64,000 bases of DNA from Candidatus Daviesbacteria bacterium (GCA_016186955.1 JACPKP010000006.1:4055-68054), one strand, 5' to 3'. Counted from the first letter of the stretch, positions 8,303 to 49,098 are shown. Translations and numbers: made by a program. Notes: generated from the letters alone by a model not told the origin.

Positions 8303-8320
8303 ATTGTCATACAGAAAATT

Positions 8321-10054: not shown

Positions 10055-10062
10055 TTTAAGTC

Positions 10063-24359: not shown

Positions 24360-24658
24360 TTTATTGTATCAAACGGATTTTTATATGCGGAAAATGGATT
24401 AACATACTGAGAGCTTTTGTCAAAAGGGTTTTTATAGGCGGTTTGCAATTTAACTGTTGGTTCCTTAGTATTTTGTTGAACCTTATCGGTGATAAGTTTT
24501 GTAGGGTTTTTGATAATACCAGAGGTGATTAGCAAAAACAGCGCTGATATAAAAATAACTGCAACTAGAAGTAGAATAAGATGTGCTATTCCTGACTGGG
24601 CAAGGAGCAGTTTTTTAACCACTAAACATATAATCCCCAAAGACAGGGATTTTGTCAA
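24356..24658 (-). CDS. small single-TM protein with a C-terminal triple NPF-repeat tail (YKNPF...NPF...AYKNPF)
   Basis: Start overlaps the upstream gene stop (ATGA coupling). Paralogous to 30014..30253. Confidence 0.5.
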   Translation of the reverse strand: MTKSLSLGIICLVVKKLLLAQSGIAHLILLLVAVIFISALFLLITSGIIKNPTKLITDKVQQNTKEPTVKLQTAYKNPFDKSSQYVNPFSAYKNPFDTIK

Positions 24659-24672
24659 GTGTCAAAATATGG

Positions 24673-27264
24673 TTAAACCACACTCAAACACCACGTTTGT
24701 TGTTTTTGGTTTTGAATTTTTTTGCACTCATTTTTGGCAAAGTTTTTATCAGAATCCCAATCGAGTAAGGAAGTACCTATCTGTTTAAAACAACTTTCCT
24801 GATGAATGCTGCTCAAATTCGAGCAAAAATCAATCATCTTATTAGTCTTGCCCACGAATCTATACGACAGAGAAGATATTACTCCACCTATGCAAACACT
24901 TTGAAAATGCAAAGAAAGCATACTCTCACAATTTGTTTTCATTAAAGCAAAATCTTTTGTAAAACCAACTTGGTTGGTGCCAATGGTCCTGATGCAATTA
25001 TCCTGGAACTTTTCAGGGATTTTGAAACACATACGGGCTACCTTAGCAAAATCCTGGTGGTTCAAAATTGCAAAATATGAACTCTGGTATTGCCAACAAA
25101 GCGCCAAATATTTTTCTTCTAAAATGTTACATGGATAAAACGGATCATCTTTTTTCAGGTATACTGTTGCGTGATCAAGTGAGGTAGATGAAGAAGAATT
25201 TTCCATAAATACCCCTGTGTAACATTTTTCTTTATGTATTTGCGACTCAAGGGCATCACAAAGTCTCAAGGATTCCTTAAGTTCCATATCCGTTACAAAC
25301 ATGGCTGCATGCCCCAACCCATGTAAACACTCATAATATTCCAAAGGTTTTGTATAATCTTCCAATTTCCCACAAATTTTTGGGAATTGTGCAGCAAGGC
25401 TTGCTTCGGTTTCAAGGTTTTGACTTTTTAAGTAAGCCTCAATTGTGCCATGATAGCAACCCCCATGACAGGTTGAATCACACTGGCTATAAACACCACT
25501 TATATTATTTAACTTTTCAAATTCTAGCCGGGAGAGGTAGTGGGTAACTTCGTGGCATCTGGCAAAAACTTCCTGATAGTCTTCGTTTTCTCTCAAAAGA
25601 CTCATGGTTTTTGACAAACCAAACTGGTCATATAAAACTTTTGCAACCCTCTTATAACAATTATCCCGACCGCCACTGCCATAACAGATGTTTAACTGAT
25701 CCCTCAAATATGCATTTTTATCCTGCCCTATCTCTACCGAGCTGAAATTATTTTTTTTTTGCCTGCCATATTCTTTGATAATTGTCTCCAGATATTTTAA
25801 GCATTCATCCGGGTTTTGCAGACTCTGACAAACCATTGTTGATTTATCACCCCAACCTGGAATTTCCTGAAATATTAATTCTCCTGCGGCAGCTTTTGTA
25901 CAGGCTGCCAAGTAATTTGGGTCGCTTATTTGCCGGCAACCGCTTATGATTTGTTTGGGATCGCCCGATGCAGCTATATAAAAACCTAATGAATCAACAC
26001 AAGCTTTTTTAAACTGCTCAGAGGTTGAATTTAAACAAACCTTTATCACATCATCAAAGCTTAAATGAAATCTACTCATCAGCAGAGTAGCCTGATTTCT
26101 ACCACAGCTAAATGAATATTTTGGTCCAAAATTTGCCTCTAAATCATCGCAGGGGTAATAAGGGTCATCCTTTTTATAAAAATTTTGGCTTGCCGACCTT
26201 GCAAACTCCATAAAAACTCCATCAAAACAGTAATCGTTTCCTGATTGCAATTTTCTACAGGCAGCCAATGCCTCCTGAAGGTCTTTGGTTGTATAAAAAC
26301 TTGCAACCCCGTGGCCTATTCCATGCATACAACTTGCAAAAGGACCACCTGTTCCGAGTTTATTGCATGCATCTTCTGCTTTGGGTAAATCTTTTAAGCT
26401 TTTCTCAAAAGCCTTATCTAAAAAGCCATGGAAGCAGCCAAAAGCAAAGTCCTGCGAACAAATAGTGATACCTGAAAAACTTTTCTTTTCGTAAATAAGC
26501 TTTCCCATCAGGTGAGTCAAATCATGAACATTTCCGGTAGTTCCTCCCTGTCCTTGATAAGTTTGTTTTAGAAACTGCCAAGTATTTTCAACCCCCTCAA
26601 TCTCCACCATCTCATTTATACTTTTAATTTGTTCATCAGGAGAAAGTTTGTTTAAGTTTGGGCGGATAAAACTTTTATTTTGGTTTTGTGTTTGATTATT
26701 TTTTTTGAAGTTAAAATGAAACAAACTACTGAAAAAGTTTGAAATTTTATTTTTAGCAATTTCAAACCAATTTTGTTTAGTAGTTTTTGGAGGCGGAAAA
26801 TCCTGATCAACCGCACTTGTTTCACCATTGACAATCAATTCTCCTCGAAAATGCGGATAAAGGTGATCATGGAATTTCCAATTGCCGGTTTTAGGTTTAA
26901 AAGCCCAATCCCTTCCAGGGTCTATCTCATGTTTGGGGTCAAACTCAGGATAGGTATCATGAGTAGGATGGATGTTGGAAGCTGGCCAATGCGCATTACT
27001 GCCTTCATTAATAAATATTACAGTTGTATCGGAATCAATCTCAATTGTTTGCGGATCAAACCCATTATCTGTTATTTTAATCACTTGAGTTGCAGAGTGG
27101 GCAAAAGTCGGTTGAGGGAAAAATGAACTATTCTGCAGTAAACTGCGGAGTATCCCTTCGGGAAAGTTCTTCTGTGAACCATTCATCCTCCACAAAGCTT
27201 GCGAGGTATTCTGGTTCAAGAATAACAAAAAGGAGATTAAAAAAAATTTTAAAAAACCCCCCAT
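24673..27264 (-). CDS. secreted protein (863 aa) with an N-terminal cupredoxin-like beta domain and repeated C-x-HG-x-GH modules
   Basis: Signal peptide. VIKITDNGFDPQTIEIDSDTTVIFINEGSNAHWPAS resembles a cupredoxin-like segment. Repeats include CFHGFLD, CMHGIGHG, CYHGTIE and CLHGLGHA. Paralogous to 31051..32274. Confidence 0.55.
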   Translation of the reverse strand: MGGFLKFFLISFLLFLNQNTSQALWRMNGSQKNFPEGILRSLLQNSSFFPQPTFAHSATQVIKITDNGFDPQTIEIDSDTTVIFINEGSNAHWPASNIHPTHDTYPEFDPKHEIDPGRDWAFKPKTGNWKFHDHLYPHFRGELIVNGETSAVDQDFPPPKTTKQNWFEIAKNKISNFFSSLFHFNFKKNNQTQNQNKSFIRPNLNKLSPDEQIKSINEMVEIEGVENTWQFLKQTYQGQGGTTGNVHDLTHLMGKLIYEKKSFSGITICSQDFAFGCFHGFLDKAFEKSLKDLPKAEDACNKLGTGGPFASCMHGIGHGVASFYTTKDLQEALAACRKLQSGNDYCFDGVFMEFARSASQNFYKKDDPYYPCDDLEANFGPKYSFSCGRNQATLLMSRFHLSFDDVIKVCLNSTSEQFKKACVDSLGFYIAASGDPKQIISGCRQISDPNYLAACTKAAAGELIFQEIPGWGDKSTMVCQSLQNPDECLKYLETIIKEYGRQKKNNFSSVEIGQDKNAYLRDQLNICYGSGGRDNCYKRVAKVLYDQFGLSKTMSLLRENEDYQEVFARCHEVTHYLSRLEFEKLNNISGVYSQCDSTCHGGCYHGTIEAYLKSQNLETEASLAAQFPKICGKLEDYTKPLEYYECLHGLGHAAMFVTDMELKESLRLCDALESQIHKEKCYTGVFMENSSSSTSLDHATVYLKKDDPFYPCNILEEKYLALCWQYQSSYFAILNHQDFAKVARMCFKIPEKFQDNCIRTIGTNQVGFTKDFALMKTNCESMLSLHFQSVCIGGVISSLSYRFVGKTNKMIDFCSNLSSIHQESCFKQIGTSLLDWDSDKNFAKNECKKIQNQKQQTWCLSVV

Positions 27265-27317
27265 ACTTAATCAAAATTATACATAAATGAAAATTTTAAG
27301 AAAGTGTTAAAAAAATT

Positions 27318-28322
27318 TTACTTGCCTGTAAGAAAATCCCAAATAATCTGCCAATAACTACGCTCTGTGCTCACACCTGAAACACCCGGGGTTGGGTAAG
27401 CATAACTAGGTGTGCCATAAGATGGGGTGTCATAGCTTGGGGTGCCATAGGATGGAGTTCCATAAGATGGGGTGTCATAGCTTGGTGTGCCATAAGATGG
27501 AGTAGCATATGAGTCACTAGGGGTGCCATAACTAGGCGTACCATAAGATGGGGTTCCATAGGAAGGGGTGCCATAACTTCCTGGGGTGGGATAAGCATAC
27601 CCTGGGGTGTAATAAGTCCCACTTGGTGTTCCATAAGTCCCTGGTGTGTAGTAGCTTGGTGATGGATAGCTGTAGCCTGTCCCTGGGGTGGGATAAGCAT
27701 ATGGTGATGGATATGCGTAACTAGCGCCTGGAGTCGGATAATAATAATTTGGCGAAGCATAAGGACTATAGTATGTGCTCGGAGTCACATACCCTGAATC
27801 CGGCGTGATGTAACCGCTTCCAGGAGTATAGTAAGGACTTGTATAAGTGCCTCCCGGAGTGTAATAGGATGGTGAATAATAAGTCGGGGTGTAGTAATTT
27901 GGTGTTGAGTATGGCGTGTAGTAAGACGGGGAAGTATAGGTTGAGCCCTCGGGAGGGGTGTAATATTGCGGGGTTGAATAGGGTGTATAGTAGGTTGGGG
28001 TCGAATAAGGAGTCGGTGTGTAATAAGTAGGAGTGTTGTAAACAGCAGGAGTATAGTAAGAAGGGCTGGTATAAGTACTTCCTGCTGGTGGTGTTGGATA
28101 AGTAGGAGTGCTATAAGCAACCGGAGTATTATAGGCAGGCGGAGTTGGATAAGTTCCTGGTGTGTAATAATTTGGTGTTGTATAAGGAGGCGGCGGGGTA
28201 TAGTAGGACGGGCTTGTATAATTTGAACCTGCTGGAGGAGTGTAATAGGTTGGGGTTGAATAGGTTGGAGGAGTGTAATAGGTTGGGGTTGAATAACCTC
28301 CGCCTGTCCATGGTGTGTAGTA
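27318..28322 (-). pseudogene. Tyr/Pro/Thr-rich low-complexity tail (about 334 codons) in frame with 28323..30017 and separated from it by a single TGA; ends in YWQIIWDFLTGK
   Basis: Both track ORFs lie in the same minus-strand frame (coordinates 0 mod 3). My hand translation of 27789..28322 gives YYTPWTGGGYSTPTYYTPP... with no stop. Confidence 0.5.
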
Positions 28323-30017
28323 TCATGGTGTGTAGTATTGCGGTGTGGTGTAGGTTGGTGGGGTTGTATAACTCGGTGTAGTGTAAGTAGAACCTGCTGG
28401 AGGAGTGTAATAATAAGGAGTCATATACTGAGGAGGTGTGTAGTAATAAGGTGTTGTGTAATTTGAACCTGCTGGAGGAGTGTAATAAGAAGGCGTTGAA
28501 TAAGTTGGGGTTGGGTATGCACCGGTCGGCGTTGGGTAATTATTCCATGGTGTGTAGTAATTTGGTGTTGTGTAATTTGAACCTGCTGGAGGAGTGTAAT
28601 AAGAAGGCGTTGAATAAGTTCCTGGTGTGTAGTAATTTGGTGTTGTGTAATTTGAACCTGCTGGAGGAGTGTAATACAACGGCGTTGTATAGAAATTAGT
28701 TACAGGTGGTGTCACATACTCAATGTTGTGCGGGGGGGTGTAATAAGTACCCGGAATATAAATGTCGGGTGGCCTGGGCGCCTTTTCATTAAAACCCGGG
28801 CAAGCATCTTTATGATCCTTACAATAATCATAACAACCCCCAGGAGTTGTACAATCACCCATTTCTTTAATCGGTTCATGTTTGACTTCTGTACCAGGGG
28901 TAAAATAAACATAGGGCGTATAATCATCTGTAGGTCTTTGGGAATTACCATCAAATCCTTTGCAGCTTTCAGCCGTTGGGTTTGCCTTACAATAGTCATA
29001 ACATTCACCAGGCGTTTTACAATTTCCCATATCGGCCCTGGCTTCGAAATGAGCATTGGGTACAGTGGGATCAATTCCATCTGGAGCTTGATCCTGGCAA
29101 GAGTCACCATTCCAGTATTTATCCGCTCCAACACAATCTGTAGCCGGTTTAGTCTCTGAAACTGCAGTACATGCTCCTCCCGGCCCATGAAATTCATTAG
29201 AGGGACAAACAAACGGTACATAGTAACCACTTGAATCCGGTGCATAGCTTCTGCATTGGTCCGGATTAGATTCACAATAATTTCTACATGAAGTTACATC
29301 CGTACAACCGCCAGGTCCCCGGAAATCATTTCCCGGGCTAAAGCTCTGGCATGCTTTAAAATTGTTTGGATCAGAACAAAAGGAACCACAGGTCTCCGGG
29401 GTTTGACATCCCCCCGGACCGCCGGTCTCTTTTCCACCCAATAATCCTGTTTTATTAGCAAATTCATTACATTTATCCTGATTGTTCGGATCAGCACAAA
29501 AAGCGCTACAATTCTCTTTAGAATCACAACCCAAATCCTGTTTTGCAGTTTCTAATATCTCTTTTTTATCAGGTTGTTTGACATACCCTCCCAAGATATC
29601 ATGCCTTTTAGCATAGGATTCGCAAGTATCATGGTTGTCATCTTTCGAACAAAAATCCAAACAAGCGCTTGTGGAACCACAACCCAATTCTTTATTTGTA
29701 TCATCCCAAAATTTTGTATCACCATAAACAGTAGGATCATCTTTATAAAAACCGTTTTGCTTCGCATATTCAGAGCAATTATTGTAATTTATCGGGTCAT
29801 TACAAAAATTTGTGCAATCTTCCAGGTTTTTACAACTTCCTAAATCAATAATGGGGTAGGTCAAATCCTGAGAAGTACTATTTGTTGTGCCATTTGATGT
29901 CGGAGATGCTGGTTGTGCATAAATAATGTTTGTAAAAATCAATAAAAGAAAAGCAACTAAAAATAAGGTTAAAGTTTTAGTTAAATTCAAGGATAGGTCT
30001 TTTGTTAAATTGTTCAT
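28323..30017 (-). CDS. secreted Cys-rich repeat protein (564 aa), paralogous to 22494..24359, truncated by TGA at 28323..28325
   Basis: Signal peptide and the same Cys modules (GSCKNLEDCTNFCNDPINYNNCSEYAKQNGFY...). A PY repeat tail begins before the stop. Confidence 0.6.
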   Translation of the reverse strand: MNNLTKDLSLNLTKTLTLFLVAFLLLIFTNIIYAQPASPTSNGTTNSTSQDLTYPIIDLGSCKNLEDCTNFCNDPINYNNCSEYAKQNGFYKDDPTVYGDTKFWDDTNKELGCGSTSACLDFCSKDDNHDTCESYAKRHDILGGYVKQPDKKEILETAKQDLGCDSKENCSAFCADPNNQDKCNEFANKTGLLGGKETGGPGGCQTPETCGSFCSDPNNFKACQSFSPGNDFRGPGGCTDVTSCRNYCESNPDQCRSYAPDSSGYYVPFVCPSNEFHGPGGACTAVSETKPATDCVGADKYWNGDSCQDQAPDGIDPTVPNAHFEARADMGNCKTPGECYDYCKANPTAESCKGFDGNSQRPTDDYTPYVYFTPGTEVKHEPIKEMGDCTTPGGCYDYCKDHKDACPGFNEKAPRPPDIYIPGTYYTPPHNIEYVTPPVTNFYTTPLYYTPPAGSNYTTPNYYTPGTYSTPSYYTPPAGSNYTTPNYYTPWNNYPTPTGAYPTPTYSTPSYYTPPAGSNYTTPYYYTPPQYMTPYYYTPPAGSTYTTPSYTTPPTYTTPQYYTP

Positions 30018-30253
30018 TTGTTTAAAAATGGATTTTTATATGCCTGAAAAGGGTTAAGATATTGGGTGTCTTTGTTGAAAGGATTACGGTACCCGGTTTT
30101 TAAGGTTACTTTGGGGCTTTGTTTTTTACTTAAACCCGGAAGATTTTTAAAAGGGTTATTAATAAAACCGAAATAAATAAGGAGGCTGCCCGCAATAACA
30201 AGCAGTAACAACAACGGTAATGCTAGATGAATTACTCCTTTTTGTTTCCCCAC
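30014..30253 (-). CDS. small single-TM protein with a C-terminal NPF-repeat tail, paralogous to 24356..24658
   Basis: Ends YRNPFNKDTQYLNPFQAYKNPFLNK. Start overlaps the upstream stop. Confidence 0.5.
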   Translation of the reverse strand: MGKQKGVIHLALPLLLLLVIAGSLLIYFGFINNPFKNLPGLSKKQSPKVTLKTGYRNPFNKDTQYLNPFQAYKNPFLNK

Positions 30254-30337
30254 TCTATTAAAACTTTCTTATATATTGTAATCTTGCTCACAATTATTTA
30301 TGCTTGTCAAGAGGCAATTTTTTATGAAGCTCCACGG

Positions 30338-31054
30338 TTAAAACCGTGGTTTTCTGCTTTTTGCTGATGAATCTACCCACGACTTTACAGTCGGGGTTTT
30401 ATCGAGATAAAAGGCATACTCTTCCTCTAATTTTGACAAATCATAAATAAATAATTTTTTACCGACGTAACCAATTAGATTATTATCCCGAAGTTTTTTA
30501 AATTCCTTGGTCACTGACTCCCTAGCCAGACCTGCTTGATAAGCCAGTTGTTCATGGGTAGGGGAGTAGTCAAAAGTAACTTTACCATTGATATTTTTAC
30601 CAAACCTTTTTGAGTAGATAATCAGATGAGTTATGATTTTTAAATATGCATCACCCAAAAGCAATACTTCCACTCTCTGAAAAAATCCATCCAACCCCAG
30701 GTATATTCTTTTTAACAAATCCAGCATAATATCCGGGTTATTCTTTAAAAATTTTTTAAAATAAGTTTTGGGGGCAAAATACCCTTCAACCTCTGATAAA
30801 GCATCATAACTATACTTATCCTGAATATTCCTTAATATTAAAGACATCGGAAATAGGGAGTAGGGTTTATAAATATTCAGTGTCAGCCGGTTATCGTTTA
30901 AAGCGCTAAACATCCTGACTGCCCCTTTTGTTAAGAAAAATATTTTTTTACTCTTCGGATTGATCACTTGTTTTCCCCTGGCAAAAGTCTTTAACCGATA
31001 TTTACTAAAAAAAGATAAAAGTAGTGTTTGAACCTTAGGATGCATAGAATTCAT
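30338..31054 (-). CDS. Crp/FNR-family transcriptional regulator
   Basis: cNMP-binding-like N-terminus and a C-terminal HTH (THEQLAYQAGLARESVTKEFKKLRDNNLI). Overlaps the upstream gene by 4 nt. Confidence 0.7.
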   Translation of the reverse strand: MNSMHPKVQTLLLSFFSKYRLKTFARGKQVINPKSKKIFFLTKGAVRMFSALNDNRLTLNIYKPYSLFPMSLILRNIQDKYSYDALSEVEGYFAPKTYFKKFLKNNPDIMLDLLKRIYLGLDGFFQRVEVLLLGDAYLKIITHLIIYSKRFGKNINGKVTFDYSPTHEQLAYQAGLARESVTKEFKKLRDNNLIGYVGKKLFIYDLSKLEEEYAFYLDKTPTVKSWVDSSAKSRKPRF

Positions 31055-32274
31055 TGGGAGATAAGCGGGGTAAAATTAGACAAACACTGGTTTTGGAATG
31101 GCTGCTCAATTTTTTTACACCAAAACTCTTTTTGGCTTCTGTCTATCGGGTCTGAGATAATTTGGCTGATAATTGTTTGGTAGCATTCCTGTTTGACGCT
31201 TGGGGGGGTATTTTCGCATATAAATATGGCTTGACCCCGACCGCCAACAGAATAAAATGATCCAGCGTTTACAACAATACAGTTGTCATACCATTTAGCG
31301 CCTGCCTGTTGGCAGAGTTGAAATGCTTTAGAAGGATCGCCATTTGTTAAAGGGTGTATTTGCCTGGCTACATTATCCATACACCAAGCGGCATATTGAT
31401 CATTGCCAACTTCCTGACACAGTTGAGATGTTTTAGCAATATCTCCTTTGTTTATTTGATAAATCCTGGCAGCCTGGTTTAACCAACAACCTTTTTGGTA
31501 TTTTTCTTCAAATGCATTACAGGGAAAATACGGGTCGTTGGACAACCAATCCCTTTTTTGTTCCTTCGCGGTCCCCCAATCATGAACACCAAATAAATTT
31601 TCCATAAAGGCGCCGTTATGACAAGAGCTTAAGGCTTCCGGAAATTTATCTTCTTTTTCATAAAGCCTGTCACAGGTTTTTAATGCCTGCGGTAGATCAT
31701 AATTCCAAATCGCCAGGATCGAGTGGCCAGCTGCATGGACACATTGGAAATACCTAACAGAGGATTCTTTACATTTATCAGTCATCTTGGTGATTGCATC
31801 AAACCCTTGGTCTGATGCAGCCTCAATAATCGCTCCATGATAGCAAGCATAAAGAAAGTAGTCTTTGCACTTTAAAATAGCATCTACTCCGTATTTTTGG
31901 TAGGCATAGAAACCAATCTGATGAACTACCAGATGCCCTTCACCGGTGTGGGGCAGTGGTGAGCGTTCTAAGATTTCTAAGGCTTTCTCCACATCAACCC
32001 TTTCTACTAATTTCCTGGCGGCTTTTAAACGAACTGCCTGTTCAGAGGACATAATATCTTTCATTTCCGGGACATCCTCTTTGGCACCTAAAACAGAATT
32101 GGGGGAAGAATTGTTAAAATTAATTGAAGACTGTTTATTATTCGATTGTAGAGAGGTCTTTTTTGGCTGGTGGCGGTATTCCTGCAGTTGAAAAACAACT
32201 GCCGCAGTAATAAAAAGAAGTAAAATAATTTTAAGGTTGACTTTACTATTTCTTTTATTCCATTTAAACTTCAT
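31051..32274 (-). CDS. secreted or membrane-anchored protein (407 aa) with repeated C-x-H-x-GH modules, paralogous to the C-terminal half of 24673..27264
   Basis: CYHGAIIEAAS, CVHAAGHSILA, CHNGAFMENLFG and CMDNVARQ repeats, with an N-terminal hydrophobic segment. Confidence 0.55.
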   Translation of the reverse strand: MKFKWNKRNSKVNLKIILLLFITAAVVFQLQEYRHQPKKTSLQSNNKQSSINFNNSSPNSVLGAKEDVPEMKDIMSSEQAVRLKAARKLVERVDVEKALEILERSPLPHTGEGHLVVHQIGFYAYQKYGVDAILKCKDYFLYACYHGAIIEAASDQGFDAITKMTDKCKESSVRYFQCVHAAGHSILAIWNYDLPQALKTCDRLYEKEDKFPEALSSCHNGAFMENLFGVHDWGTAKEQKRDWLSNDPYFPCNAFEEKYQKGCWLNQAARIYQINKGDIAKTSQLCQEVGNDQYAAWCMDNVARQIHPLTNGDPSKAFQLCQQAGAKWYDNCIVVNAGSFYSVGGRGQAIFICENTPPSVKQECYQTIISQIISDPIDRSQKEFWCKKIEQPFQNQCLSNFTPLISQ

Positions 32275-32324
32275 TAATCTTGTATAACAGAACCTGAGAA
32301 AATTTTCCAGATGCTTACTAAATA

Positions 32325-32753
32325 TTAATGTACTCTGTTCTTTCTTTTTACCCGAAGTTGGGCAAGGGATTTCTCCAGGATTGCCAATGTTTCTACATAT
32401 TCTTCATCAGATAATTTTTGTTCCAAAGCTTGCTCAGCTCTTTTTCTGGCTTCCTCAACCTTTTTCTCATCAATCTCATCCTCATCTACAGCCAAATCTG
32501 TCAATATTGTCAGGGTGTTTTCTGCAATCTGCATAAACCCTGCCCCAACAGCCATAACCTGGGTTTTATTCCCATGTTTTATCTTTAATTCTCCGGGAAC
32601 CGTTTTTGCCATCAAATTTGCATGGTGGGGAAGTATACCCAGTTCACCTTCAGATGACGGCAGTGTCACAAGATCAACCAATCCTTCAAAAATCTGCTTT
32701 TCCGGAGTGACAATTTTTAAATTCAGCTGGGACATACTTGGAATTATATTCAA
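32325..32753 (-). CDS. atpC: F1 ATP synthase epsilon subunit
   Basis: LNLKIVTPEKQIFEGLVDLVTLPSSEGELGILPHHANL is typical of the epsilon subunit. Confidence 0.85.
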   Translation of the reverse strand: MNIIPSMSQLNLKIVTPEKQIFEGLVDLVTLPSSEGELGILPHHANLMAKTVPGELKIKHGNKTQVMAVGAGFMQIAENTLTILTDLAVDEDEIDEKKVEEARKRAEQALEQKLSDEEYVETLAILEKSLAQLRVKRKNRVH

Positions 32754-33139
32754 TTTATAGTAGCATTGCCAATATGGCAGAACACGGGTGCGGGGCGATA
32801 ATAATAACCTGTATCGACTACCGCTTTCAGGAATATATCAATAAGTGGATCGGGGAAAATTTCTTGCCCGGCACATATGACAGGGGGGCATTTGCAGGCG
32901 CTGCAAAAAGCCTTGATACCATAGTTGAACAAGTCGGGATATCTGCCAAACTGCACCATATAAAAAAAGTTGTTTTAATCAACCATGAGGACTGCGGGGC
33001 ATATGGGAAAGAGGGGAGAATTGACCAACATATCAAGGACCTTAAAAAAGCCCGTCAAAGAATTACAAAACAGTACCCCATATTTGAAATAGATACCTTC
33101 TATCTTAAACTTGATGGTACTTTTGAACAGGACTTCTAG
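32738..33139 (+). CDS. small beta-carbonic-anhydrase-like protein (133 aa)
   Basis: Motifs C-I-D-Y-R and H-E-D-C-G fit the beta-carbonic-anhydrase zinc ligand pattern CxDxR...HxxCG. Confidence 0.45.
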   Translation: MELYSIYSSIANMAEHGCGAIIITCIDYRFQEYINKWIGENFLPGTYDRGAFAGAAKSLDTIVEQVGISAKLHHIKKVVLINHEDCGAYGKEGRIDQHIKDLKKARQRITKQYPIFEIDTFYLKLDGTFEQDF

Positions 33140-33183
33140 CCCTATAGTTTGACAAACCGGCGGATTTAAGATATAATCATCGC

Positions 33184-33744
33184 ATGATTATTGAATCAAT
33201 TTCCCATACTGTGGAAGTAAAAAGGAATTTTGTGAAACCGGCCGAACAGGTTGTGAGAAAACTTGCAGAGGATTACAGCAAGTCATACATGTCATACAGG
33301 AATGCTGTTTGGCTAGATAATAGTGGTGCTGACTACTTTATTATCGGTAGGATACCGGCGCTGGAATTTCTTTTGCAGTCATTGAACCAAAGCAGACTGG
33401 TCAAACTTGTTAAAATAGGTACGTCGTTTGATCAAATCCAAAATGTAAAATTTGAGTCTTTCCCAATGATAGGCGAAAGCGCTATAAGAGGTGTCCTTGA
33501 ATATTATGAAGCAGCACAATCCGAAGTATGCCGCGCTTACCATGCAAGCATGATATCACCCGGCAACCGGTTTGTGTTGGAAAATTGGCTGGGAGCAAGC
33601 TCGGTATATGAGGAATTTCTGGCTGCAATCGGACAGTCCCAAGCCGCTTTAAGAATCGCAAATTTTGCAATCAACAGATTAAACGCCCAAGTTTTCCACA
33701 AATTAGCACAGAATTCTCAACATGAAAGAATATTTACCCATTGA
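33184..33744 (+). CDS. hypothetical protein (186 aa)
   Basis: Intact ORF. Confidence 0.35.
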   Translation: MIIESISHTVEVKRNFVKPAEQVVRKLAEDYSKSYMSYRNAVWLDNSGADYFIIGRIPALEFLLQSLNQSRLVKLVKIGTSFDQIQNVKFESFPMIGESAIRGVLEYYEAAQSEVCRAYHASMISPGNRFVLENWLGASSVYEEFLAAIGQSQAALRIANFAINRLNAQVFHKLAQNSQHERIFTH

Positions 33745-34279
33745 CTTCTGTTTAGAATTTAACTTAGAGAGAAATGGTTTAATTTGGAAATTTTTGGGTT
33801 TACCGCTAGCAAATGACACGGGTTTTACTTCACATATGATCAATTACGTTAATTGTTATGTAGATTGGCACGATGTTTATAAAAATCCAAGAGAAGCCAG
33901 AATGCACATGTATTTAGACGGACTTCACCCTCTTGGTTTAGAAAAACCAAACTTTGAAGAAAAACTATTCAGGATGAGAAGATGGGCGGATGCCATTTTA
34001 GCTTTTGATTCAATAATGACGGATGATTATAATCCCAAGATAGATGTTAATGAACTAAAAAAAATGCTAAGTAACAGTACTCTTCCAAGACCCAGTATTT
34101 TAATACATCCAACAGGAAAAGAAAGTTTAATCAAACTTTTTAGTAATTTAGATTGCTTCTATAACCCATACGATAGACATTTGAATACTGCCCCAATCAA
34201 ACATAATTGGAACGGTTTTGTAGACAACGTAAAATCTGGAAAATTTATAGAGGAATGGAAACGTCAAAAAGGGAGATAG
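33722..34279 (+). CDS. hypothetical protein (185 aa)
   Basis: Intact ORF overlapping the previous one. Confidence 0.35.
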   Translation: MKEYLPIDFCLEFNLERNGLIWKFLGLPLANDTGFTSHMINYVNCYVDWHDVYKNPREARMHMYLDGLHPLGLEKPNFEEKLFRMRRWADAILAFDSIMTDDYNPKIDVNELKKMLSNSTLPRPSILIHPTGKESLIKLFSNLDCFYNPYDRHLNTAPIKHNWNGFVDNVKSGKFIEEWKRQKGR

Positions 34280-34341
34280 GTTATTTTAAATCTTCAGCTC
34301 CACCGATCATGATCATATAGAAAACAGTTTTTAGTTAATTT

Positions 34342-34665
34342 TTAATCTCTGATTCTGGTGAATTTTCTTTTAAAATTTTTGCCTGATTTTATTGCTCTTA
34401 AAAGAACTTTCTTTTTATTTTCTACTGACTCATCTTTTAAACGCAGCAATATTACACCGAAATGAACTAATTTTTCTTTGAAGACTAATTCACCAAAATC
34501 TTTGTCCATGGTTAGGAGAATTCTATTTTCTTTATTGGCAATATCTAAAATGTCAGAATCAGGTTTATTTAGAGCTACTTCTATTGCAGAAATTACATCA
34601 AGACCTAAATCTTTTAAGTATTTAGGTATTTGAATACCCAGATTTTCATCTGTTATAAATTTCAT
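34342..34665 (-). CDS. DUF5615-like (PIN-related) putative toxin
   Basis: MKFITDENLGIQIPKYLKDLGLDVISA...ILLTMDKDFGEL matches the DUF5615 pattern (hxxDENL...LTxDKDF). Confidence 0.6.
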   Translation of the reverse strand: MKFITDENLGIQIPKYLKDLGLDVISAIEVALNKPDSDILDIANKENRILLTMDKDFGELVFKEKLVHFGVILLRLKDESVENKKKVLLRAIKSGKNFKRKFTRIRD

Positions 34666-34888
34666 GAAGGTAAGAGACAGCTTGGGATTGGGGTTTGGAA
34701 ACCTGTTTTACAGCATATTCTACAGCTGCTTTAATATCAGCTTCCTCAAGTTGTGGGAAATCTTCTAGAATGTCTTTTATAGTTAACTTCTGAGCTAAAA
34801 GCCTTAAAATTTGCTCCACTGTTATTCTTGTCCCTGCAACAATTGGTTTTCCCAACATAATTTTAGGATCAGTTATAATCTTTGGCAT
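34646..34888 (-). CDS. DUF433-like putative antitoxin
   Basis: PKIMLGKPIVAGTRITVEQILRLL is typical of DUF433. Overlaps the downstream partner by 20 nt. Confidence 0.6.
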   Translation of the reverse strand: MPKIITDPKIMLGKPIVAGTRITVEQILRLLAQKLTIKDILEDFPQLEEADIKAAVEYAVKQVSKPQSQAVSYLHEIYNR

Positions 34889-34912
34889 AAACTTATTATA
34901 GCATAGAGTGGG

Positions 34913-37226
<2,314 letters not shown>

Positions 37227-37248: not shown

Positions 37249-38805
37249 TTATTTTTTATTTGTTTTCTGAAACATCTTCATAAACTCAGTGGTAATTTTC
37301 TCCAACTCTTTAGTCAATTTTTCATCCAACTCTTTTTTTTCAGCAATTTCGCCTAAAAGTTTTTTCTCTTTCAACCTTAAATTTTTGATAAACTCTGTTT
37401 CAATCTCTTTAACTTTTTCAACATCAACCTCATCAAAATACCCGTTTGTGACAACCCAAAGGATAACAACTTGTTCTTCAACAGGAACAGGGGAGTAGGG
37501 CGGCTGTTTTAAAACCTCTGTTATACGCCTACCTCTTTCGATCTGCGCCTTAGTAGAAGCATCCAGATCTGATGAAAACTGGGCAAAAGCAGCCAGTTCC
37601 CTAAATTGGGCCAAATTCAACCTTAATTTCCCCGCAACTGATTTCATGGCTTTAGTCTGGGCTGCACCGCCAACCCTGGACACTGATAAACCCACATTAA
37701 GGGCCGGCCTTGTCCCTGCATAGAATAAATCAGACTCTAGGTAAATCTGCCCGTCTGTAATGGAAATAACATTGGTCGGAATATAGGCGGACACATCTCC
37801 AGCCTGCGTTTCAATAATCGGTAAGGCTGTCAGGGAACCTCCGCCAAAATCCTGGTTTAATCTGGCAGCCCGCTCAAGTAACCTGGAATGCAGGTAAAAT
37901 ACATCTCCTGGATAAGCTTCGCGGCCAGAAGGCCTTCTCAGCAGAAGCGACATCTGGCGGTAAGCCCAAGCATGTTTTGACAAGTCATCAAAAATGACCA
38001 GTGCATCTTTCCCCTGGTCCATAAAATATTCACCGATTGCACAACCTACGTAGGGAGCAAGATATTGCATGGATGCCGGGTCGGAAGCAGATGCCACAAC
38101 CACAATTGTATGGTCCATGGCTTTATTTTCTTCAAGTTTGGCCACAAGCTGGGCAACCTTGGAAACTTTTTGGCCGATTGCCACATAAATACAAATAACA
38201 GGACTTTCACCTCGGGGGTGTCCACCAGACTTAAACCGAGCTTCACCCCCGAGGTGGGCCTGGTTGATGATGGTGTCAACAGCTATTGTAGTTTTACCGG
38301 TATTGCGGTCACCGATAATAAGCTCCCTTTGGCCCCTGCCTATAGGGATCATGCTGTCTATGGCCTTAATGCCTGTTTGAAGAGGGATATCAACACCTTG
38401 GCGGGTTATAACACCTGAGGCAATTTTTTCAACAGGATAATATGTCTTAGTCTTGACCGGACCTTTGCCATCAAGCGGCTGGCCTAAGGCATTAACAACC
38501 CTACCTACCAAAGCTTCTCCAACAGGCACTTCTAAAACCCTGCCTGTTGTTTTTACCAAATCTCCCTCTTTAATTTTGGTAAAATCTCCCAGGATAACCG
38601 CACCAACGTTGTAGGTTTCCAGGTTCAAAGCTAAGCCAAAAATTGACCCGGGGAATTCAATCAGCTCAGAGGCCTGGACATCTGATAACCCTTCTATCCT
38701 GGCAATACCGTCTCCCACTTCCACAACAGTACCGACATTGGTCTTGCCTGCCTTCATTTTCAAACCCTTAATTTCTTTTTCAATCTGGTTGATTATATCT
38801 GACAT
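37249..38805 (-). CDS. atpA: F1 ATP synthase alpha subunit
   Basis: [19 protein letters not shown]-loop, with IYVAIGQK. An insertion encoded by palindromes lies at 38205..38258. Confidence 0.95.
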
Positions 38806-38807
38806 TT

Positions 38808-39203
38808 TTAACTTCTTATTACGTTTCTGACTTGTTCAATCCTGTTGGCAAAAGTGTCCTCAAAAACTTCATCACCTATCTTAAGCCTAAAACCTCCCAA
38901 AAGTTCCGTGTTGATAACAATTTCGGTTTCAAAAATTTTCTGGTTCATACTGATTAATTTAGTTATCCCATTAAGTTGATGTTTTGATAACGGGTAAGGA
39001 ACTTCAACAATCAGCCGGTGTTTATCCAGCTCATTTTTAATAAGTTTCATATATAAGTTTAATGATTCAACCGCTTCACCCTTAGGCTGTTTTTTTAAAA
39101 GGTCTAAAAACATCCTAACCTTTTGGGCGCTTAACTTATCATTTACAAAACTCTCCCTTGCAAGTTTGATAATTAAATTTTTTAAGTTGGCATTTTTAGT
39201 CAT
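38808..39203 (-). CDS. atpH: F1 ATP synthase delta subunit (short, 131 aa)
   Basis: Position between atpF and atpA, with delta-like C-terminal helices. Confidence 0.7.
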
Positions 39204-39205
39204 TT

Positions 39206-39697
39206 TTAAAGTTTTTTAATAGCGCTATCAACTACCTCTTGCTGTTTTTTAAGATCCAATGAACCTGCAATAACTTTCCTCAAACTAACAATAACTACCT
39301 CAGACAACTCTTCCCTCATCTCCTGTTGCATCTTCTCCCGCTCTGATACTATCGCCTGCTGGCCTTTGGCCAGCATATCTTTAATGTCCAACTGTGCTCT
39401 TGCATGGGCATCCGCTAAAACCTGTTCCCCTGATTTTGTAGCTTCATCTATAATTTTTTTAGCATCATTTGCAGCCACTCTTAAAACCTTTTCTTTCTCC
39501 TCTTCGGTTTTTAAGAGTTTTTTTTCAATCTCCTCCGCATTTTTTAAGCTTTGGGCAATGGTATCCTTACGCTCTTTTAACACCTTAAGGATTGGCTTAT
39601 AAAGCAGCTTTTTAAGTATAAAAAGCAGCGCCAAAAAATTAACTATCTGGGCTGCAAGCAGTATAGGTTGTACACCAAAATCTTTTAAAAAATCCAT
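39206..39697 (-). CDS. atpF: Fo ATP synthase subunit b
   Basis: N-terminal TM helix then a long charged coiled coil. Operon position. Confidence 0.8.
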   Translation of the reverse strand: MDFLKDFGVQPILLAAQIVNFLALLFILKKLLYKPILKVLKERKDTIAQSLKNAEEIEKKLLKTEEEKEKVLRVAANDAKKIIDEATKSGEQVLADAHARAQLDIKDMLAKGQQAIVSEREKMQQEMREELSEVVIVSLRKVIAGSLDLKKQQEVVDSAIKKL

Positions 39698-39702: not shown

Positions 39703-40040
<338 letters not shown>

Positions 40041-40164: not shown

Positions 40165-40887
40165 TTAATGGCTTTCGTGTTTTTCGCTCAAAAGCACCAT
40201 AAAAACCAGCGTCAGCATCATAAATACCGCAGCTTGTACAAACCCAACTATAATCTCCAGAAAATAAAAGGGGAGCGGCAGCAGGAAAGCAGCAATGTTT
40301 GAGATTGTTGCCAAAACTACCTCTCCTGCAAATATATTACCAAAAAGCCGAAAGGAAAGCGACATTATCTTGGTAAACTCAGATACTATCTCCAACATCC
40401 CGACGAAAAGGAAGATCGGGTTTAGCGAAACCCAGCGGATTAGATAATTTTTAATGCCCAGATATTTTACCGCCAGGATATGGGTTGCCGCTGCGGAAAC
40501 CAGCGCCAAAGCCAAGGTAGTATTTAAATCTGAGTTCATTGAGCGAAGAAGCGGCGCCCCATTAAAACTGATGGTGGAAAACCCCGGTAATAGGCCGAGG
40601 AGGTTTCCCATCACAATCAGCAGGAAAAAAGTCATGACAATTGGAAAAATAACAGCAGTTTTAGAGTGTGCCAGGTCTTCAACGGTCTGAAACCCCAATT
40701 CTACAACCATCTCAAAAAAGTTCTGGATCCCAGAAGGAACCTTCTGAATTCTCCTGGTTGCCAGAAAACTTAGTATTACCAAAAACCCCATTGTTATCCA
40801 GGTTACAAGCAGAGTATTGGTTAAAGGCAGGCTGCCGATTTGTCCGATAATTTCCGGTTTCAAAACTATTTCATTTTCCATATTCAA
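40165..40887 (-). CDS. atpB: Fo ATP synthase subunit a
   Basis: Polytopic membrane protein with the conserved R in LSFRLFGNIFAGE. Confidence 0.85.
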   Translation of the reverse strand: MNMENEIVLKPEIIGQIGSLPLTNTLLVTWITMGFLVILSFLATRRIQKVPSGIQNFFEMVVELGFQTVEDLAHSKTAVIFPIVMTFFLLIVMGNLLGLLPGFSTISFNGAPLLRSMNSDLNTTLALALVSAAATHILAVKYLGIKNYLIRWVSLNPIFLFVGMLEIVSEFTKIMSLSFRLFGNIFAGEVVLATISNIAAFLLPLPFYFLEIIVGFVQAAVFMMLTLVFMVLLSEKHESH

Positions 40888-41695: not shown

Positions 41696-43294
41696 ATGTC
41701 TTCTGAAAAGTTTGAAACTTTAAGCGGCATACCCCTGGAAACTTATTACTCCCCTAAAAAACGCGGGAAAAATTATAAAATAAACCTGGGCAATCCCGGT
41801 GAATATCCTTACACAAGGGGGATCCACAAAACTGGTTACCGGGGGAAACTTTGGACCATGCGCCAGTTTGCCGGCTTTGGGACAGCCGAGGAAACCAACG
41901 GGAGGTTTAAATATCTTTTGTCAGAGGGCCAAACAGGGCTTTCCACAGCCTTTGACCTGCCAACCCTTTACGGAAGGGATACCGACGACCCGGGCAGGGA
42001 TGCCACCGAACCACCTGCATGGCCTGACTTTGGCGAAGGCGGGGTAGCATGCTCATCACTTTTGGATATGGAGGCGCTGTTTAAGGATATCCCCCTGGAA
42101 GATGTCTCCGTATCAATGACCATTAACGGCCCTGCCTCAATAATTTGGGCGATGTTTTTGGCAAACAGTGATAACAGGGGGTTTGAGAGAAAAAATTTAC
42201 GGGGGACGCTGCAAAATGATATATTAAAAGAATTCCATGCTCAAAACGAACAGCTTTTTCCGCTCCGGCCCAGTATGAGGCTGGTCGCCGATACTATTGG
42301 TTTTGCCATAAAAGAAGTCCCGCTTTTTAACCCGGTCTCCGTTTCCGGTTACCACATCCGGGAAAAAGGGTCAACAGCGGTCCAAGAGCTGGCTTTTACC
42401 TTATCCGACGGGTTTGCCTATCTGGATGAATGCCTCACCCGGGGCATGGATATTGATGAAGTGGCGCCAAGGCTTAGTTTTTTCTTTAACTCCCACAATG
42501 ATTTTTTTGAAGAGATCTGCAAATTTAGGGCTGCCAGAAGAATTTGGGCCAAGGAATTGAAGGAAAAATACGGGGCAAAACAGGAACGAAGTTGGAAACT
42601 CAAATTCCATACCCAAACCGCAGGCTGCAGTCTTTACCAAAACCGGATTGCCAATAACGAAGTCAGGATCACCCTGCAGGCTTTAGCAGCTGTATTGGGA
42701 GGGACGCAAAGCCTGCACACCGATGCCATAGACGAGGCTGAATCCCTGCCTACCCAGGAAGCAGTTAAAAAAGCCCTCCGCACCCAGCAGATCATCGCTT
42801 ATGAATCCGGGGTTGCCAAAACCGTTGACCCTTTGGGCGGAAGTTATTTTATAGAAGGGCTGACAAACCATATGGAACAAGAGGCAAGAAAATATTTTGA
42901 GGAGATTGAAAAAATAGGCGGTGTTATAGCTGCCGCTGAAGAAGGCTATCAAAAATATGTGATTGAAGAGGCCGGGTTTGAATATGAGATGGCCAAGGAC
43001 CGGGGGGATCTGGTGATCGTCGGGGTGAATAAATTTTTAGACCCAAGGGATGCGCCCACTGTCCGCAACAAAGACCCACAAGGTTTATCAAGACAATTGG
43101 ACAGGCTAAAAAATTTAAGGGCAAACCGCAACAATGATGAGGTTTTAAAATCCTTAGCTAAATTAAAAGATGTATGTCAAGGCCATGAAAATGTCATGCC
43201 GGCGCTGGTTGATGCAGCCAAAGCATATGCCACACTTGGTGAGATGACAAATAAAATGAAGGAGGTGTTTGGGGAAGCGCAAAGGCCAACTTAA
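41696..43294 (+). CDS. methylmalonyl-CoA mutase family, catalytic (substrate-binding TIM-barrel) domain only, 532 aa
   Basis: YPYTRGIHKTGYRGKLWTMRQFAGFGTAEETNGRFKYLLSEGQTGLSTAFDLPT is the MCM N-terminal signature. No B12-binding domain. Confidence 0.75.
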   Translation: MSSEKFETLSGIPLETYYSPKKRGKNYKINLGNPGEYPYTRGIHKTGYRGKLWTMRQFAGFGTAEETNGRFKYLLSEGQTGLSTAFDLPTLYGRDTDDPGRDATEPPAWPDFGEGGVACSSLLDMEALFKDIPLEDVSVSMTINGPASIIWAMFLANSDNRGFERKNLRGTLQNDILKEFHAQNEQLFPLRPSMRLVADTIGFAIKEVPLFNPVSVSGYHIREKGSTAVQELAFTLSDGFAYLDECLTRGMDIDEVAPRLSFFFNSHNDFFEEICKFRAARRIWAKELKEKYGAKQERSWKLKFHTQTAGCSLYQNRIANNEVRITLQALAAVLGGTQSLHTDAIDEAESLPTQEAVKKALRTQQIIAYESGVAKTVDPLGGSYFIEGLTNHMEQEARKYFEEIEKIGGVIAAAEEGYQKYVIEEAGFEYEMAKDRGDLVIVGVNKFLDPRDAPTVRNKDPQGLSRQLDRLKNLRANRNNDEVLKSLAKLKDVCQGHENVMPALVDAAKAYATLGEMTNKMKEVFGEAQRPT

Positions 43295-44341: not shown

Positions 44342-44428
44342 CAGGGGAGAGAGTAACCCCTCCCTTATTTTTTAAAATCACTGATACCCTTTGGCCTGAA
44401 GTTTAAAAAGTTATGTTATAATTCCTTT

Positions 44429-44701
44429 ATGTTTAAACAAACAGAAAAAGTTTCCGAATATGAGTTGCCTATTAAAATATGGCCTCAAAAAAATGGAGGC
44501 TTTGTTGTAACCTCACCCTTGTGGAATGACTGTTATGCACAAGGAGACACAGTGGACGAGGCAGTACTGGAAATTACCGCACTTGCTCAATCTTTAATTG
44601 AATTATATAAGGAAGAAGGGTTAAAAATCCCTCTAAAATTAGCTGGTGAAAAAAAGTTTGATAACCCAAATCTCTCTGTGCCAATTTTAGTAGCAGTATG
44701 A
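44429..44701 (+). CDS. hicB: HicB-family antitoxin
   Basis: A small protein of about 90 aa whose TGA stop overlaps the ATG of the next gene. Confidence 0.6.
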   Translation: MFKQTEKVSEYELPIKIWPQKNGGFVVTSPLWNDCYAQGDTVDEAVLEITALAQSLIELYKEEGLKIPLKLAGEKKFDNPNLSVPILVAV

Positions 44702-44910
44702 ATCCTCTCACGTACAGAGAAATTATCAAAAAGGCCCGTAAAGTGGGTTTTGTATTCCGCAGGAACACAGGAGGAACCCATGAAATCTGGTGGAATGAAG
44801 CCAAAAGGAAAACATGTATTATCCCTCACCACCATGAAATTAAACCGGGAACTTTAAAAAATATCTTGAGACAAATGGGACTAACTGAAGCAGAATTTAA
44901 AAAACTATAA
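44698..44910 (+). CDS. hicA: HicA-family mRNA interferase toxin
   Basis: GFVFRRNTGGTHEIWWNE...IPHHHEIKPGTLKNILRQMGL matches the HicA pattern (GSHxxx...IPxH..l..GTl..Il+Q.gl). Confidence 0.7.
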   Translation: MNPLTYREIIKKARKVGFVFRRNTGGTHEIWWNEAKRKTCIIPHHHEIKPGTLKNILRQMGLTEAEFKKL

Positions 44911-44912
44911 TC

Positions 44913-47997: not shown

Positions 47998-48314
47998 CTT
48001 TTACGTAAAAGGCCCTGACTTAAACCTAACCACAACCCTAATAAACCTACGAGACCTATTATGGTCTGCGGCCCTTCTTTGAGTAATAATTGAGTTACAT
48101 AATCCATATCATGGCCTTGCGCTAATGATGCCTGAGTCATCCACAAAGTTGACCCGACAACTCCAATCAAAAAACCTGTTGCGCCCCATTTTAATGCATT
48201 CTTCCACGACCATCTCAAACCCCCTCTTTCAGAAGGCGCTTGAACAATATTTTGTGGTATTGGTTCTTGTTCCTGATAACTCATGATAAGAAGTTTATCA
48301 CAACTTATCAACAA
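47994..48314 (-). CDS. small membrane protein (106 aa)
   Basis: Two hydrophobic helices (GFLIGVVGSTLWM, TIIGLVGLLGLWLGL). Confidence 0.4.
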   Translation of the reverse strand: MLISCDKLLIMSYQEQEPIPQNIVQAPSERGGLRWSWKNALKWGATGFLIGVVGSTLWMTQASLAQGHDMDYVTQLLLKEGPQTIIGLVGLLGLWLGLSQGLLRKS

Positions 48315-48472
48315 TTGTATTTGTCATCTCGACCGTAGTGAAGAGGCCCCTTTAATCAAGAGATTCCTCGACTACGCTCGGAGTACCAGTTGACTGGGAA
48401 GAACTGAACTCATACTTGTAATTAATAACTCATTTCCTGTTCCCTTAACATCTCCTTTTTTACATTACTGTC

Positions 48473-48501
48473 TTGACTCTAATTCTCTCGTGTATTAGAG
48501 T
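48473..48501 (+). promoter_or_regulatory. promoter ttgact-17-tagagt overlapped by a 26-nt palindrome (actctaattctctcgtgtattagagt); putative operator
   Basis: Read directly. A second copy of ctctcgtgtattagagt lies at 48986..49003. Confidence 0.5.
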
Positions 48502-48508
48502 TTTAAGA

Positions 48509-48979: not shown

Positions 48980-49039
48980 CTCTGATACTCTCGTGTATTA
49001 GAGTATGTTTCGGAAAGATCTTTTCAAAAGTTGTTAACT

Positions 49040-49098
49040 TCGGAAAATTCAAAAAGAAAAGCTGCGCTGGAGGAAATGGAGAGATTAACTGCTAAGTA
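49040..49098 (+). repeat. diverged duplicate of the tyrS 3' end (about 80% identity to 47950..47997), encoding ...KRKAALEEMERLTAK*
   Basis: Direct comparison of the two segments, which differ at only a handful of positions. Confidence 0.6.

Follow-up and report, generated by a model that had tools for sequence, protein, structure and literature searches.

A relic-flanked toxin-antitoxin cassette and a recurrent landing site behind atpD in the split ATP synthase locus of a Candidatus Daviesbacteria genome

We analysed a stretch of 64,000 nucleotides from Candidatus Daviesbacteria bacterium (GCA_016186955.1 JACPKP010000006.1:4055-68054; hereafter the window), in which the gene of the ATP synthase epsilon subunit, atpC, lies apart from the other seven subunit genes. 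The reading that we favour, with moderate confidence, combines an old separation of atpD and atpC by a gene for a minimal carbonic-anhydrase-like protein (Pro_CA_2), a hotspot for small cargo downstream of atpD and, within that hotspot, a mobile toxin-antitoxin (TA) cassette that integrated by homology-assisted recombination without a recombinase of its own. The most interesting result is the pattern of cassettes that are flanked by relics of gene ends and carry no recombinase. A relic of the atpD 3' end stands next to the TA cassette; it was missed in a preliminary description of this DNA and shows how the cassette arrived, by a mechanism that we infer.

The sequence sets included an atpD-seeded sample (80 genomes fetched, atpC found downstream in 75) and a metagenome scan seeded with Pro_CA_2, which returned 80 loci. 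The CPR-like locus set (CPR, Candidate Phyla Radiation) comprises the window, L001-L005 and L081-L172; L002 is labelled as Patescibacteria group only, L003 is a Daviesbacteria metagenome-assembled genome (MAG), L004 is a Woykebacteria locus, and L012, from outside this set, is a Falkowbacteria MAG. The atpD protein of the window is 82-83% identical to those of L001, L002 and L003, and an exact-sequence look-up of it returned no match. Pfam assignments were judged against the curated cut-offs. Literature searches brought up no account of a split atp operon in CPR bacteria, of PF20393 or of relic-flanked TA cassettes.

The cassette consists of a -10 box, a gene for a DUF433 predicted antitoxin and a gene for a DUF5615 predicted toxin (Table 1). 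Both family assignments had been proposed from the sequence and both pass the Pfam cut-offs; the toxin also matches Mut7-C (PF01927, 32.3 bits, cut-off 23.3, E 1.3e-07). The two genes are co-oriented with atpD, with the antitoxin gene upstream, and overlap by 20 nt. DUF433 is a family of predicted PIN-associated antitoxins (PMC2701414), and its combination (COG2442/DUF433) with PIN-like Mut7-C-group toxins has been published as a predicted type II TA system, for which VapB45 of M. tuberculosis is a structural example (PMC2701414, PMC5499597). Systems of COG2442 with COG4634/PIN_10, such as VapBC45 (Rv2018/Rv2019), share the Pfam families and the layout of an overlapping pair with the antitoxin first, whereas the unit described here is minimal (0.57 kb), has an apparent leaderless promoter and stands behind housekeeping genes, beside a duplicated gene end. 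The DUF5615 protein has 285 homologues, one of which, from a Daviesbacteria MAG, is identical to it. Four diverged toxin copies, compared among themselves only, all keep the motifs FITDENLG and DKDFGEL unchanged. Values of dN/dS are 0.04-0.06 for DUF433 and about 0.10 for DUF5615, both within 0.04-0.11 and with dS saturated; the two genes are under purifying selection, which shows maintenance only. The pair is most likely a selfish addiction module, made of a predicted PIN-like RNase toxin and a predicted DNA-binding antitoxin that would neutralise it, and we do not think that it regulates ATP synthase.

Copies of the cassette that are 75-80% identical (blastn) are found in other Daviesbacteria (L161, L162/L164 and L166), behind three different genes: atpD (L161), a 178-aa fragment of a mevalonate-diphosphate-decarboxylase (MDD) gene (L162-L165) and a SpoU methylase gene (L166). 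The cassette is thus mobile. Homology runs from the TGnTATAAT box to the toxin stop codon, and four cassette copies have retained both the -10 box and its spacing. In the window, the -35 element overlaps the atpD stop codon, and the -10 box 6 nt before the ATG suggests that the DUF433 mRNA is leaderless. Relatives whose atpD is at least as close as that of L161 lack the cassette, and the window contains no second copy.

Just beyond the toxin stop codon we detected a 44-nt relic of the atpD 3' end, in which the stop codon is followed by the same 2 nt as at the real atpD end. Its z-score against shuffled probes was 8.2 in one test and 11 in another. A chance match was rejected, since the relic preserves the reading frame, the stop codon and the next 2 nt, reaches z = 8-11 and recurs in L161. 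In L161, the atpD-end relic occupies the same position after that locus's own copy of the cassette and is ~94% identical to its own atpD end; the atpD ends of the window and L161 are ~82% identical over this stretch. Direct repeats derived from the 3' end of the target gene thus flank the insert in the window, and do so in relatives too. Because the cassette is bracketed by the atpD 3' end and the relic copy, atpD stayed intact, and because the relic stop codon lies 1 nt from that of a convergent gene of 185 codons without known family (ORFan), atpD and this ORFan would have abutted before the insertion.

Significant atpD-end relics were identified in five of 27 close relatives, the window counted. 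Besides L161, these are L109, with an 84-nt repeat around a 1.5-kb insert that encodes DUF5678, HTH_3 and HTH_17 proteins, L110, with a 1.15-kb insert that contains a Gp49/HTH_3 pair, and L112, with three tandem copies of the atpD end (two relic copies). Among the 19 proteins encoded in the cassettes and gaps of L109, L110 and L112 there is no recombinase. Other genes have left relics as well. In the window, the end of an ABC-transporter gene (44913-46733), LFKLQAKGYQ-stop, is repeated ~500 nt downstream (region 44377-44948); between the copies lie a HicB-like gene (44429-44701, with a TATAAT-6-ATG start) and a HicA-like gene (44698-44911, recognised by eye only), a pair oriented opposite to its target gene. 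The class I aminoacyl-tRNA synthetase gene (46816-47997) has a 40-nt 3'-end relic at 49050-49089 (KRKAALEEMERLTAK-stop; region 47951-49089), and a 106-aa ORF and a Trp-repressor-like 168-aa gene stand between gene and relic. In L162 (448-4742; also in L163-L165), 2.7 kb of cargo (a YafQ-type pair, NUDIX, HAD and a 313-aa ORF) separates a complete MDD gene from its 178-aa C-terminal copy downstream, directly behind which stands the DUF433/DUF5615 cassette. In L084, a 125-aa coiled-coil gene is followed by a relic of the atpC end. At least five unrelated genes (atpD, ABC transporter, tRNA synthetase, MDD and atpC) have supplied the repeats. Measured from the end of the stop codon, the left limit of the repeats lies 120 to 25 nt upstream and the right limit anywhere between 21 nt upstream and 8 nt downstream; with source genes this diverse and ends that differ by tens of bases, we found no fixed att core, which argues against a single site-specific enzyme.

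L112 also contains, at 7667-10447, a 33-nt repeat with the near-palindrome ATTTGTGACAAAT in four copies and a 67-nt hairpin-ending repeat in two, interleaved with the three atpD-end copies; in a cassette array, these repeats might act as operators, as terminators or as sites of recombination. The coiled-coil gene of L084 (7090-7574, after atpC) is related to one in the gap between atpD and Pro_CA_2 of L001 (7377-7745); both are single-gene inserts of ~122-125 aa. Two gap proteins, probably including that of L001, matched Pfam XhlA.

The ATP synthase locus itself contains all eight F1Fo subunit genes (ORF listing and profile searches). The preliminary description had atpB-E-F-H-A-G-D contiguous on the minus strand and atpC 2.2 kb further on; ORFs and profiles agree with this order, and the distance from atpD to atpC is 2,177 bp, a gap with three opposite-strand genes. 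The spacing is unusual, as comparison with other genomes confirmed: in the atpD-seeded sample it is 8-231 bp in all atpC-positive genomes except L001 (1,256 bp) and L003 (1,882 bp), and atpC starts 13 bp after atpD in L004. Both exceptions have a Pro_CA_2 homologue divergent from atpC. The Pro_CA_2-seeded scan yielded the same divergent pair in ~40 related metagenomic contigs, in 23 of which atpD lies convergent downstream of Pro_CA_2, and in the minimal gaps (L115 and L108) Pro_CA_2 alone stands between atpD and atpC. Because the split is common to these contigs, L001 and L003, and because the minimal versions hold Pro_CA_2 only, it is old and clade-wide in a Daviesbacteria-like lineage, and its minimal state is atpD, then opposite-strand Pro_CA_2, then atpC. 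An assembly artefact was ruled out, as ~40 independent contigs show the split. The operon had been described as interrupted by the TA module together with the opposite-strand genes, a claim that its authors would have given up if relatives shared an ancient arrangement; the Pro_CA_2 split is largely of this kind. Nor is the TA module lodged inside the operon: it lies downstream of the atpBEFHAGD unit, in the variable zone between the convergent ends of atpD and Pro_CA_2.

The extent of this zone, measured from Pro_CA_2 to atpD, ranges from 7 bp (L115) and 39 bp (L108) up to 5.9 kb (L109). In the window and its relatives, 76 gap ORFs match 46 Pfam families, and no recombinase is found among the 25 most frequent of these families. 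The cargo includes EamA transporters, PIG-L, glyoxalases, a class V aminotransferase, MFS, HTH_3 with Gp49 (HigBA-like) and Fic/Doc, and the gap of L003 contains a ParE/YafQ-like toxin with a partner. The loci from the two collection scans contain no homologue of the four cargo genes of the window. The zone between the convergent 3' ends is a hotspot for unrelated small cargo, and a TA-like module there, earlier called unusual, is not exceptional for the clade, because such modules recur in the zone in relatives.

The remaining cargo of the window is a unit of two plus-strand ORFans, noted before as hypothetical genes and present as long ORFs of 186 and 185 aa that overlap by 23 nt. The 185-aa protein, identical to one of a Daviesbacteria MAG, matched itself alone among 5.8 billion proteins and had no Pfam, PADLOC or PHROGs match, while a HMMER search of 1.84 billion representatives with the 186-aa protein gave itself and one weak match (E 3e-4). 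A single-sequence AlphaFold2 model of the latter was unusable (pLDDT 35). PADLOC matched none of the five gap proteins, PHROGs gave unannotated families only, for the TA pair, and Rfam nothing in 31000-37000. Metagenomes of the SRR121134xx series carry this region, and short Logan contigs with the ORFan pair break off within the toxin gene or shortly ahead of it and offer no alternative empty site. A tRNA-linked island was ruled out because both tRNA genes of the window are far away.

The separation of atpC is accompanied by a predicted promoter of its own. The longest ORFs of Pro_CA_2 (133 aa) and atpC (142 aa, to 32753) use TTG starts, and the antisense overlap of the two genes reported in the preliminary description arises there. 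Several epsilon profiles start at residue 7 of the long atpC ORF, which corresponds to ATG 32735, and homologues of Pro_CA_2 are mostly 120-121 aa long, which points to ATG 32774. With these likely starts, the two genes are divergent with a 38-bp spacer, and the overlap is an artefact of start-codon choice, because both ORFs had been extended to upstream TTG codons. That atpC needs its own promoter, as had been argued, agrees with a promoter-like TTGGCA-18-TATAAT in this spacer. A -10-like hexamer 6-9 nt before the atpC ATG gave 34 matches in 38 distinct loci of the split clade, against a background of 1-2 matches per offset further upstream; canonical loci, with atpC after atpD (n=56), have just four -10 matches at 5-9 nt. 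The spacer between atpC and Pro_CA_2 is 13-40 bp in most loci, and 0.7-1.7 kb of cargo lies between the two genes in some relatives. Judged by these matches, atpC appears to be its own transcription unit with a conserved predicted promoter, and its mRNA would be leaderless or near-leaderless. The same geometry (TATAAT, 6-8 nt, ATG) precedes ten of the 68 genes of the window (~15%), including the DUF433 gene and the 186-aa ORFan; further start codons of this type are at 12820, 13552, 22434, 41696, 44429, 50191 and 58930. First genes of transcription units may thus often be leaderless, which suggests widespread leaderless transcription in this genome.

Pro_CA_2 was called carbonic-anhydrase-like in the preliminary description, which the PF20393 match bears out; the length given there, 133 aa, becomes 121 aa from ATG 32774. 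The residues C13, D15, R17, H71 and C74 (CxDxR ... HxxC) are invariant in 35 Pro_CA_2 sequences and in distant homologues, and correspond to the Cys-His-Cys zinc ligands and the Asp-Arg pair. An AlphaFold2 model (pLDDT 87.9) was compared with the PDB using Foldseek. Its top 21 matches are all beta-carbonic anhydrases, the best being the Cab-type enzyme 1g5c (query-normalised TM-score 0.71, E 3e-6), with which Pro_CA_2 shares the predicted fold, the Cys-His-Cys ligands and the Asp-Arg pair. It differs from the matched solved chains in its size (121 aa vs 155-225 aa) and falls below the cut-off of Pro_CA (PF00484, 16.6 bits vs 25.7); a profile search against PDB sequences gave a marginal best E of 0.015. 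Based on the model, Pro_CA_2 is plausibly a minimal zinc enzyme of the beta-carbonic-anhydrase fold. In L012 and L075, a longer Pro_CA_2-like gene is co-oriented with atpC and ~90-140 bp downstream of it, and distant homologues (45-54% identity) have no atp genes nearby; the linkage to atp genes is clade-specific. Downstream of its Pro_CA_2-like gene, L075 encodes a 352-aa protein (8558-9616) with CxDGR and HxGC-type motifs, which may be a second carbonic-anhydrase-like protein beside atp genes.

Table 1. Features of the ATP synthase locus and the atpD-atpC gap (window coordinates)
Feature	Position	Strand	Basis or remark
atpC (F1 epsilon, 136 aa from ATG 32735; N- and C-terminal domains)	32325-32735	minus	PF02823, PF00401; TIGR01216, 116.8 bits
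atpC promoter-like site, TTGGCA-18-TATAAT, in the 38-bp spacer	32743-32772	minus	-10 box ends 7 nt before ATG
Pro_CA_2, 121-aa minimal beta-carbonic-anhydrase-like protein	32774-33139	plus	PF20393, 60.9 bits (cut-off 30)
Consensus promoter, TTGACA-17-TATAAT (12/12)	33149-33177	plus	ends 6 nt before ATG of 186-aa ORFan
ORFan, 186 aa, first gene of two-gene unit	33184-33744	plus	exhaustive HMMER search
ORFan, 185 aa, second gene of unit	33722-34279	plus	sole match is itself
Direct-repeat copy 2: 44-nt atpD 3'-end relic, FYMIMIGGAEDLK-stop	34279-34322	minus	repeat search, peptide scan, alignment
DUF5615/COG4634 PIN-like predicted toxin, Mut7-C group, 107 aa	34342-34665	minus	PF18480, 73.2 bits (cut-off 23.8), E 1.8e-20
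Mobile TA cassette, 0.57 kb: -10 box, DUF433, DUF5615	34342-34906	minus	blastn homology span
DUF433 (COG2442) predicted antitoxin, 80 aa	34646-34888	minus	PF04255, 78.7 bits (cut-off 23.6), E 2.8e-22
TA cassette promoter-like site, TTTAAA-16-TGcTATAAT	34895-34922	minus	-10 box ends 6 nt before DUF433 ATG
Direct-repeat copy 1: last 11 atpD codons, stop, 2 nt beyond	34911-34948	minus	repeat search, peptide scan, alignment
atpD (F1 beta), last gene of the atpBEFHAGD unit	34913-36316	minus	TIGR01039, 817 bits
atpG	36318-37226	minus	Pfam
atpA	37249-38805	minus	Pfam
atpH (short delta, 131 aa)	38808-39203	minus	Pfam
atpF	39206-39697	minus	Pfam
atpE	39810-40037	minus	c-subunit ORF
atpB	40165-40887	minus	Pfam

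The match of the short atpH covers only positions 59-170 of the 172-position OSCP profile, and there is no room for a longer N-terminus, as atpF ends at 39206. Just upstream of the atp operon, 41696-43294 encodes a full-length protein of the methylmalonyl-CoA mutase family (PF01642, E 2.7e-193), an enzyme that is unexpected in a CPR genome of reduced metabolism. On the other side, 22494-32274 holds a cluster of large Cys-rich proteins, probably secreted, with Tyr/Thr/Pro-rich repetitive tails (22494-24359 and 28323-30017). Immediately beyond atpC, at 31051-32274, this region has a 407-aa gene that is distantly paralogous to an 863-aa gene (24673-27264); the 407-aa gene keeps its place after atpC in several relatives and is followed by a gene for a Crp-like regulator.

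In the history that we favour, Pro_CA_2 split atpC from atpD long ago in this lineage, and atpC would have become a separate transcription unit. Cargo would then arrive behind atpD as a circular or one-end-anchored fragment that carries a short stretch of the target 3' end and integrates by homologous recombination, through a Campbell-type or a homology-facilitated illegitimate event, possibly after DNA uptake. Such an integration would duplicate the last 10-40 codons of the target without a cassette-encoded recombinase, and either route would leave the same product: the intact gene, the insert, a partial 3' copy and the original downstream DNA. A repeat-flanked cassette could also be excised and then target the same conserved gene end elsewhere, in other genomes, and in a compact genome probably only insertions that restore an essential gene's end would survive selection. 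We favour recombination by the host because the form of the product fits a single crossover, the boundaries vary and the examined cassettes contain no recombinase. The end products and the mobility of the cassette are observed, and the mechanism is what we infer from them.

Several points weigh against this reading. The mechanism is read from end products, and no empty site, circular form or donor was seen. For RecA-dependent recombination the repeats, at 30-50 bp, are short, so that later erosion or another enzyme may be involved. The cassette copies of L162 and L166 are not followed by a relic, and the window and L161 could share one insertion by descent. The absence of a recombinase gene holds for the cassette of the window and for the cassette proteins of relatives examined individually; the whole window and the source genome were not screened. 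The promoters are consensus matches only. Finally, 3'-end relics were found for 10 of 613 genes in the CPR-like set and 1 of 708 in other loci (none in reversed-sequence controls), an enrichment that is indicative only, because the CPR-like set was fetched around the atp hotspot and four of the ten matches are atpD.

It is very improbable that an intact atpBEFHAGDC operon was recently broken by the TA module and three further genes, which would have stranded atpC. Five genes do lie between atpD and atpC, four of them without a homologue in the gaps of the collection-scan relatives, and the recurrence of the TA pair in the gap of L161 was counted beside these; but the Pro_CA_2 split common to ~40 contigs and two MAGs, the gaps of 7 and 39 bp with Pro_CA_2 alone (L115 and L108) and the clade-wide conservation of the atpC promoter box already contradict a recent break. 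Alternatively, the inserts could be non-autonomous islets that a site-specific recombinase moves in trans, using the 3' ends of conserved genes as att sites. The target-derived direct repeats would fit, as would the tandem accretion in L112 with its three atpD-end copies, and the HTH_17 protein adjoining atpD in L109, with a MerR-like DNA-binding fold, could be excisionase-like. Yet one recombinase with one att core cannot explain repeats from at least five unrelated genes with variable lengths and end points, and no recombinase was seen among the cassette proteins examined; we consider such islets unlikely.

We also assign a low probability to relics as local by-products of staggered-break repair, template switching or a trimmed tandem duplication, combined with vertical inheritance of one insertion by the window and L161. 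The cassette-relic junction is homologous in these two loci, and relic lengths from ~30 to >120 nt, together with the 178-aa MDD fragment of L162, fit the erosion of larger duplications. Vertical inheritance sits poorly with a cassette that stands behind three different genes and is missing from several relatives with an atpD at least as close as that of L161, and the ~94% identity of the L161 relic to its own atpD end, vs ~82% between the two atpD ends, fits recent recombination better than old neutral decay. A functional arrangement, in which Pro_CA_2 and perhaps the TA pair modulate ATP synthase through CO2/bicarbonate-proton chemistry and divergent promoters, seems to us quite improbable. 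It would draw on the linkage of Pro_CA_2 to atpC in two ways, divergent in Daviesbacteria-like genomes and co-oriented downstream in L012 and L075, and on spacers of 13-40 bp in most loci, in which the promoters must overlap. The distant Pro_CA_2 homologues without nearby atp genes, the cargo of 0.7-1.7 kb that separates atpC from Pro_CA_2 in some relatives and the presence of the TA cassette behind unrelated genes all speak against it.

The inserts have parallels in known systems. Islands at gene 3' ends include SGI1 at trmE, SCCmec at rlmH and those at tRNA genes. As with those islands, an essential gene has received the insert at its 3' end and is kept intact by direct repeats of its own terminal sequence, and tandem accretion is possible, as in L112. 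In contrast to such islands, the present inserts are 0.5-2.4 kb long, show no integrase, and have repeats that come from many genes and have variable boundaries. The cassettes also carry their own promoters, which is atypical of integron cassettes. The product matches that expected from Campbell-type or homology-facilitated illegitimate recombination in transformable bacteria. Experiments on these processes used anchors of hundreds of base pairs, whereas the present repeats mostly measure 30-85 bp, and such integration is not known from CPR bacteria. For the split itself, cyanobacteria and chloroplasts have two atp clusters, and some alpha-proteobacteria have separate F0 and F1 operons. The Daviesbacteria-like arrangement resembles these in that the synthase genes belong to more than one transcription unit; those clusters keep beta with epsilon, whereas here epsilon alone is detached and stands head to head with a carbonic-anhydrase-like gene.

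The atpD-atpC order, commonly regarded as near-invariant, has been stably rearranged in a whole CPR lineage, with the regulatory subunit epsilon placed under its own predicted promoter, head to head with a minimal carbonic-anhydrase-like gene, and the atpD 3' end is a recurrent landing site for small cassettes. For annotation, the locus illustrates that longest-ORF starts create false overlaps where transcripts appear leaderless. TA pairs that stand between duplicated gene ends, no recombinase having been seen, suggest a testable way in which TA modules could move and tiny, compact genomes could gain genes. As a tentative and still doubtful generalisation, Daviesbacteria, and perhaps CPR bacteria at large, may acquire genes in the form of mini-cassettes without a recombinase. 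In many cases these would be TA pairs with leaderless promoters; they would land at the 3' ends of conserved housekeeping genes and copy the last 10-40 codons, and the repeats would provide portable homology for excision and re-entry. If true, this would be a concrete answer to how chromosomal TA systems move without transposases.

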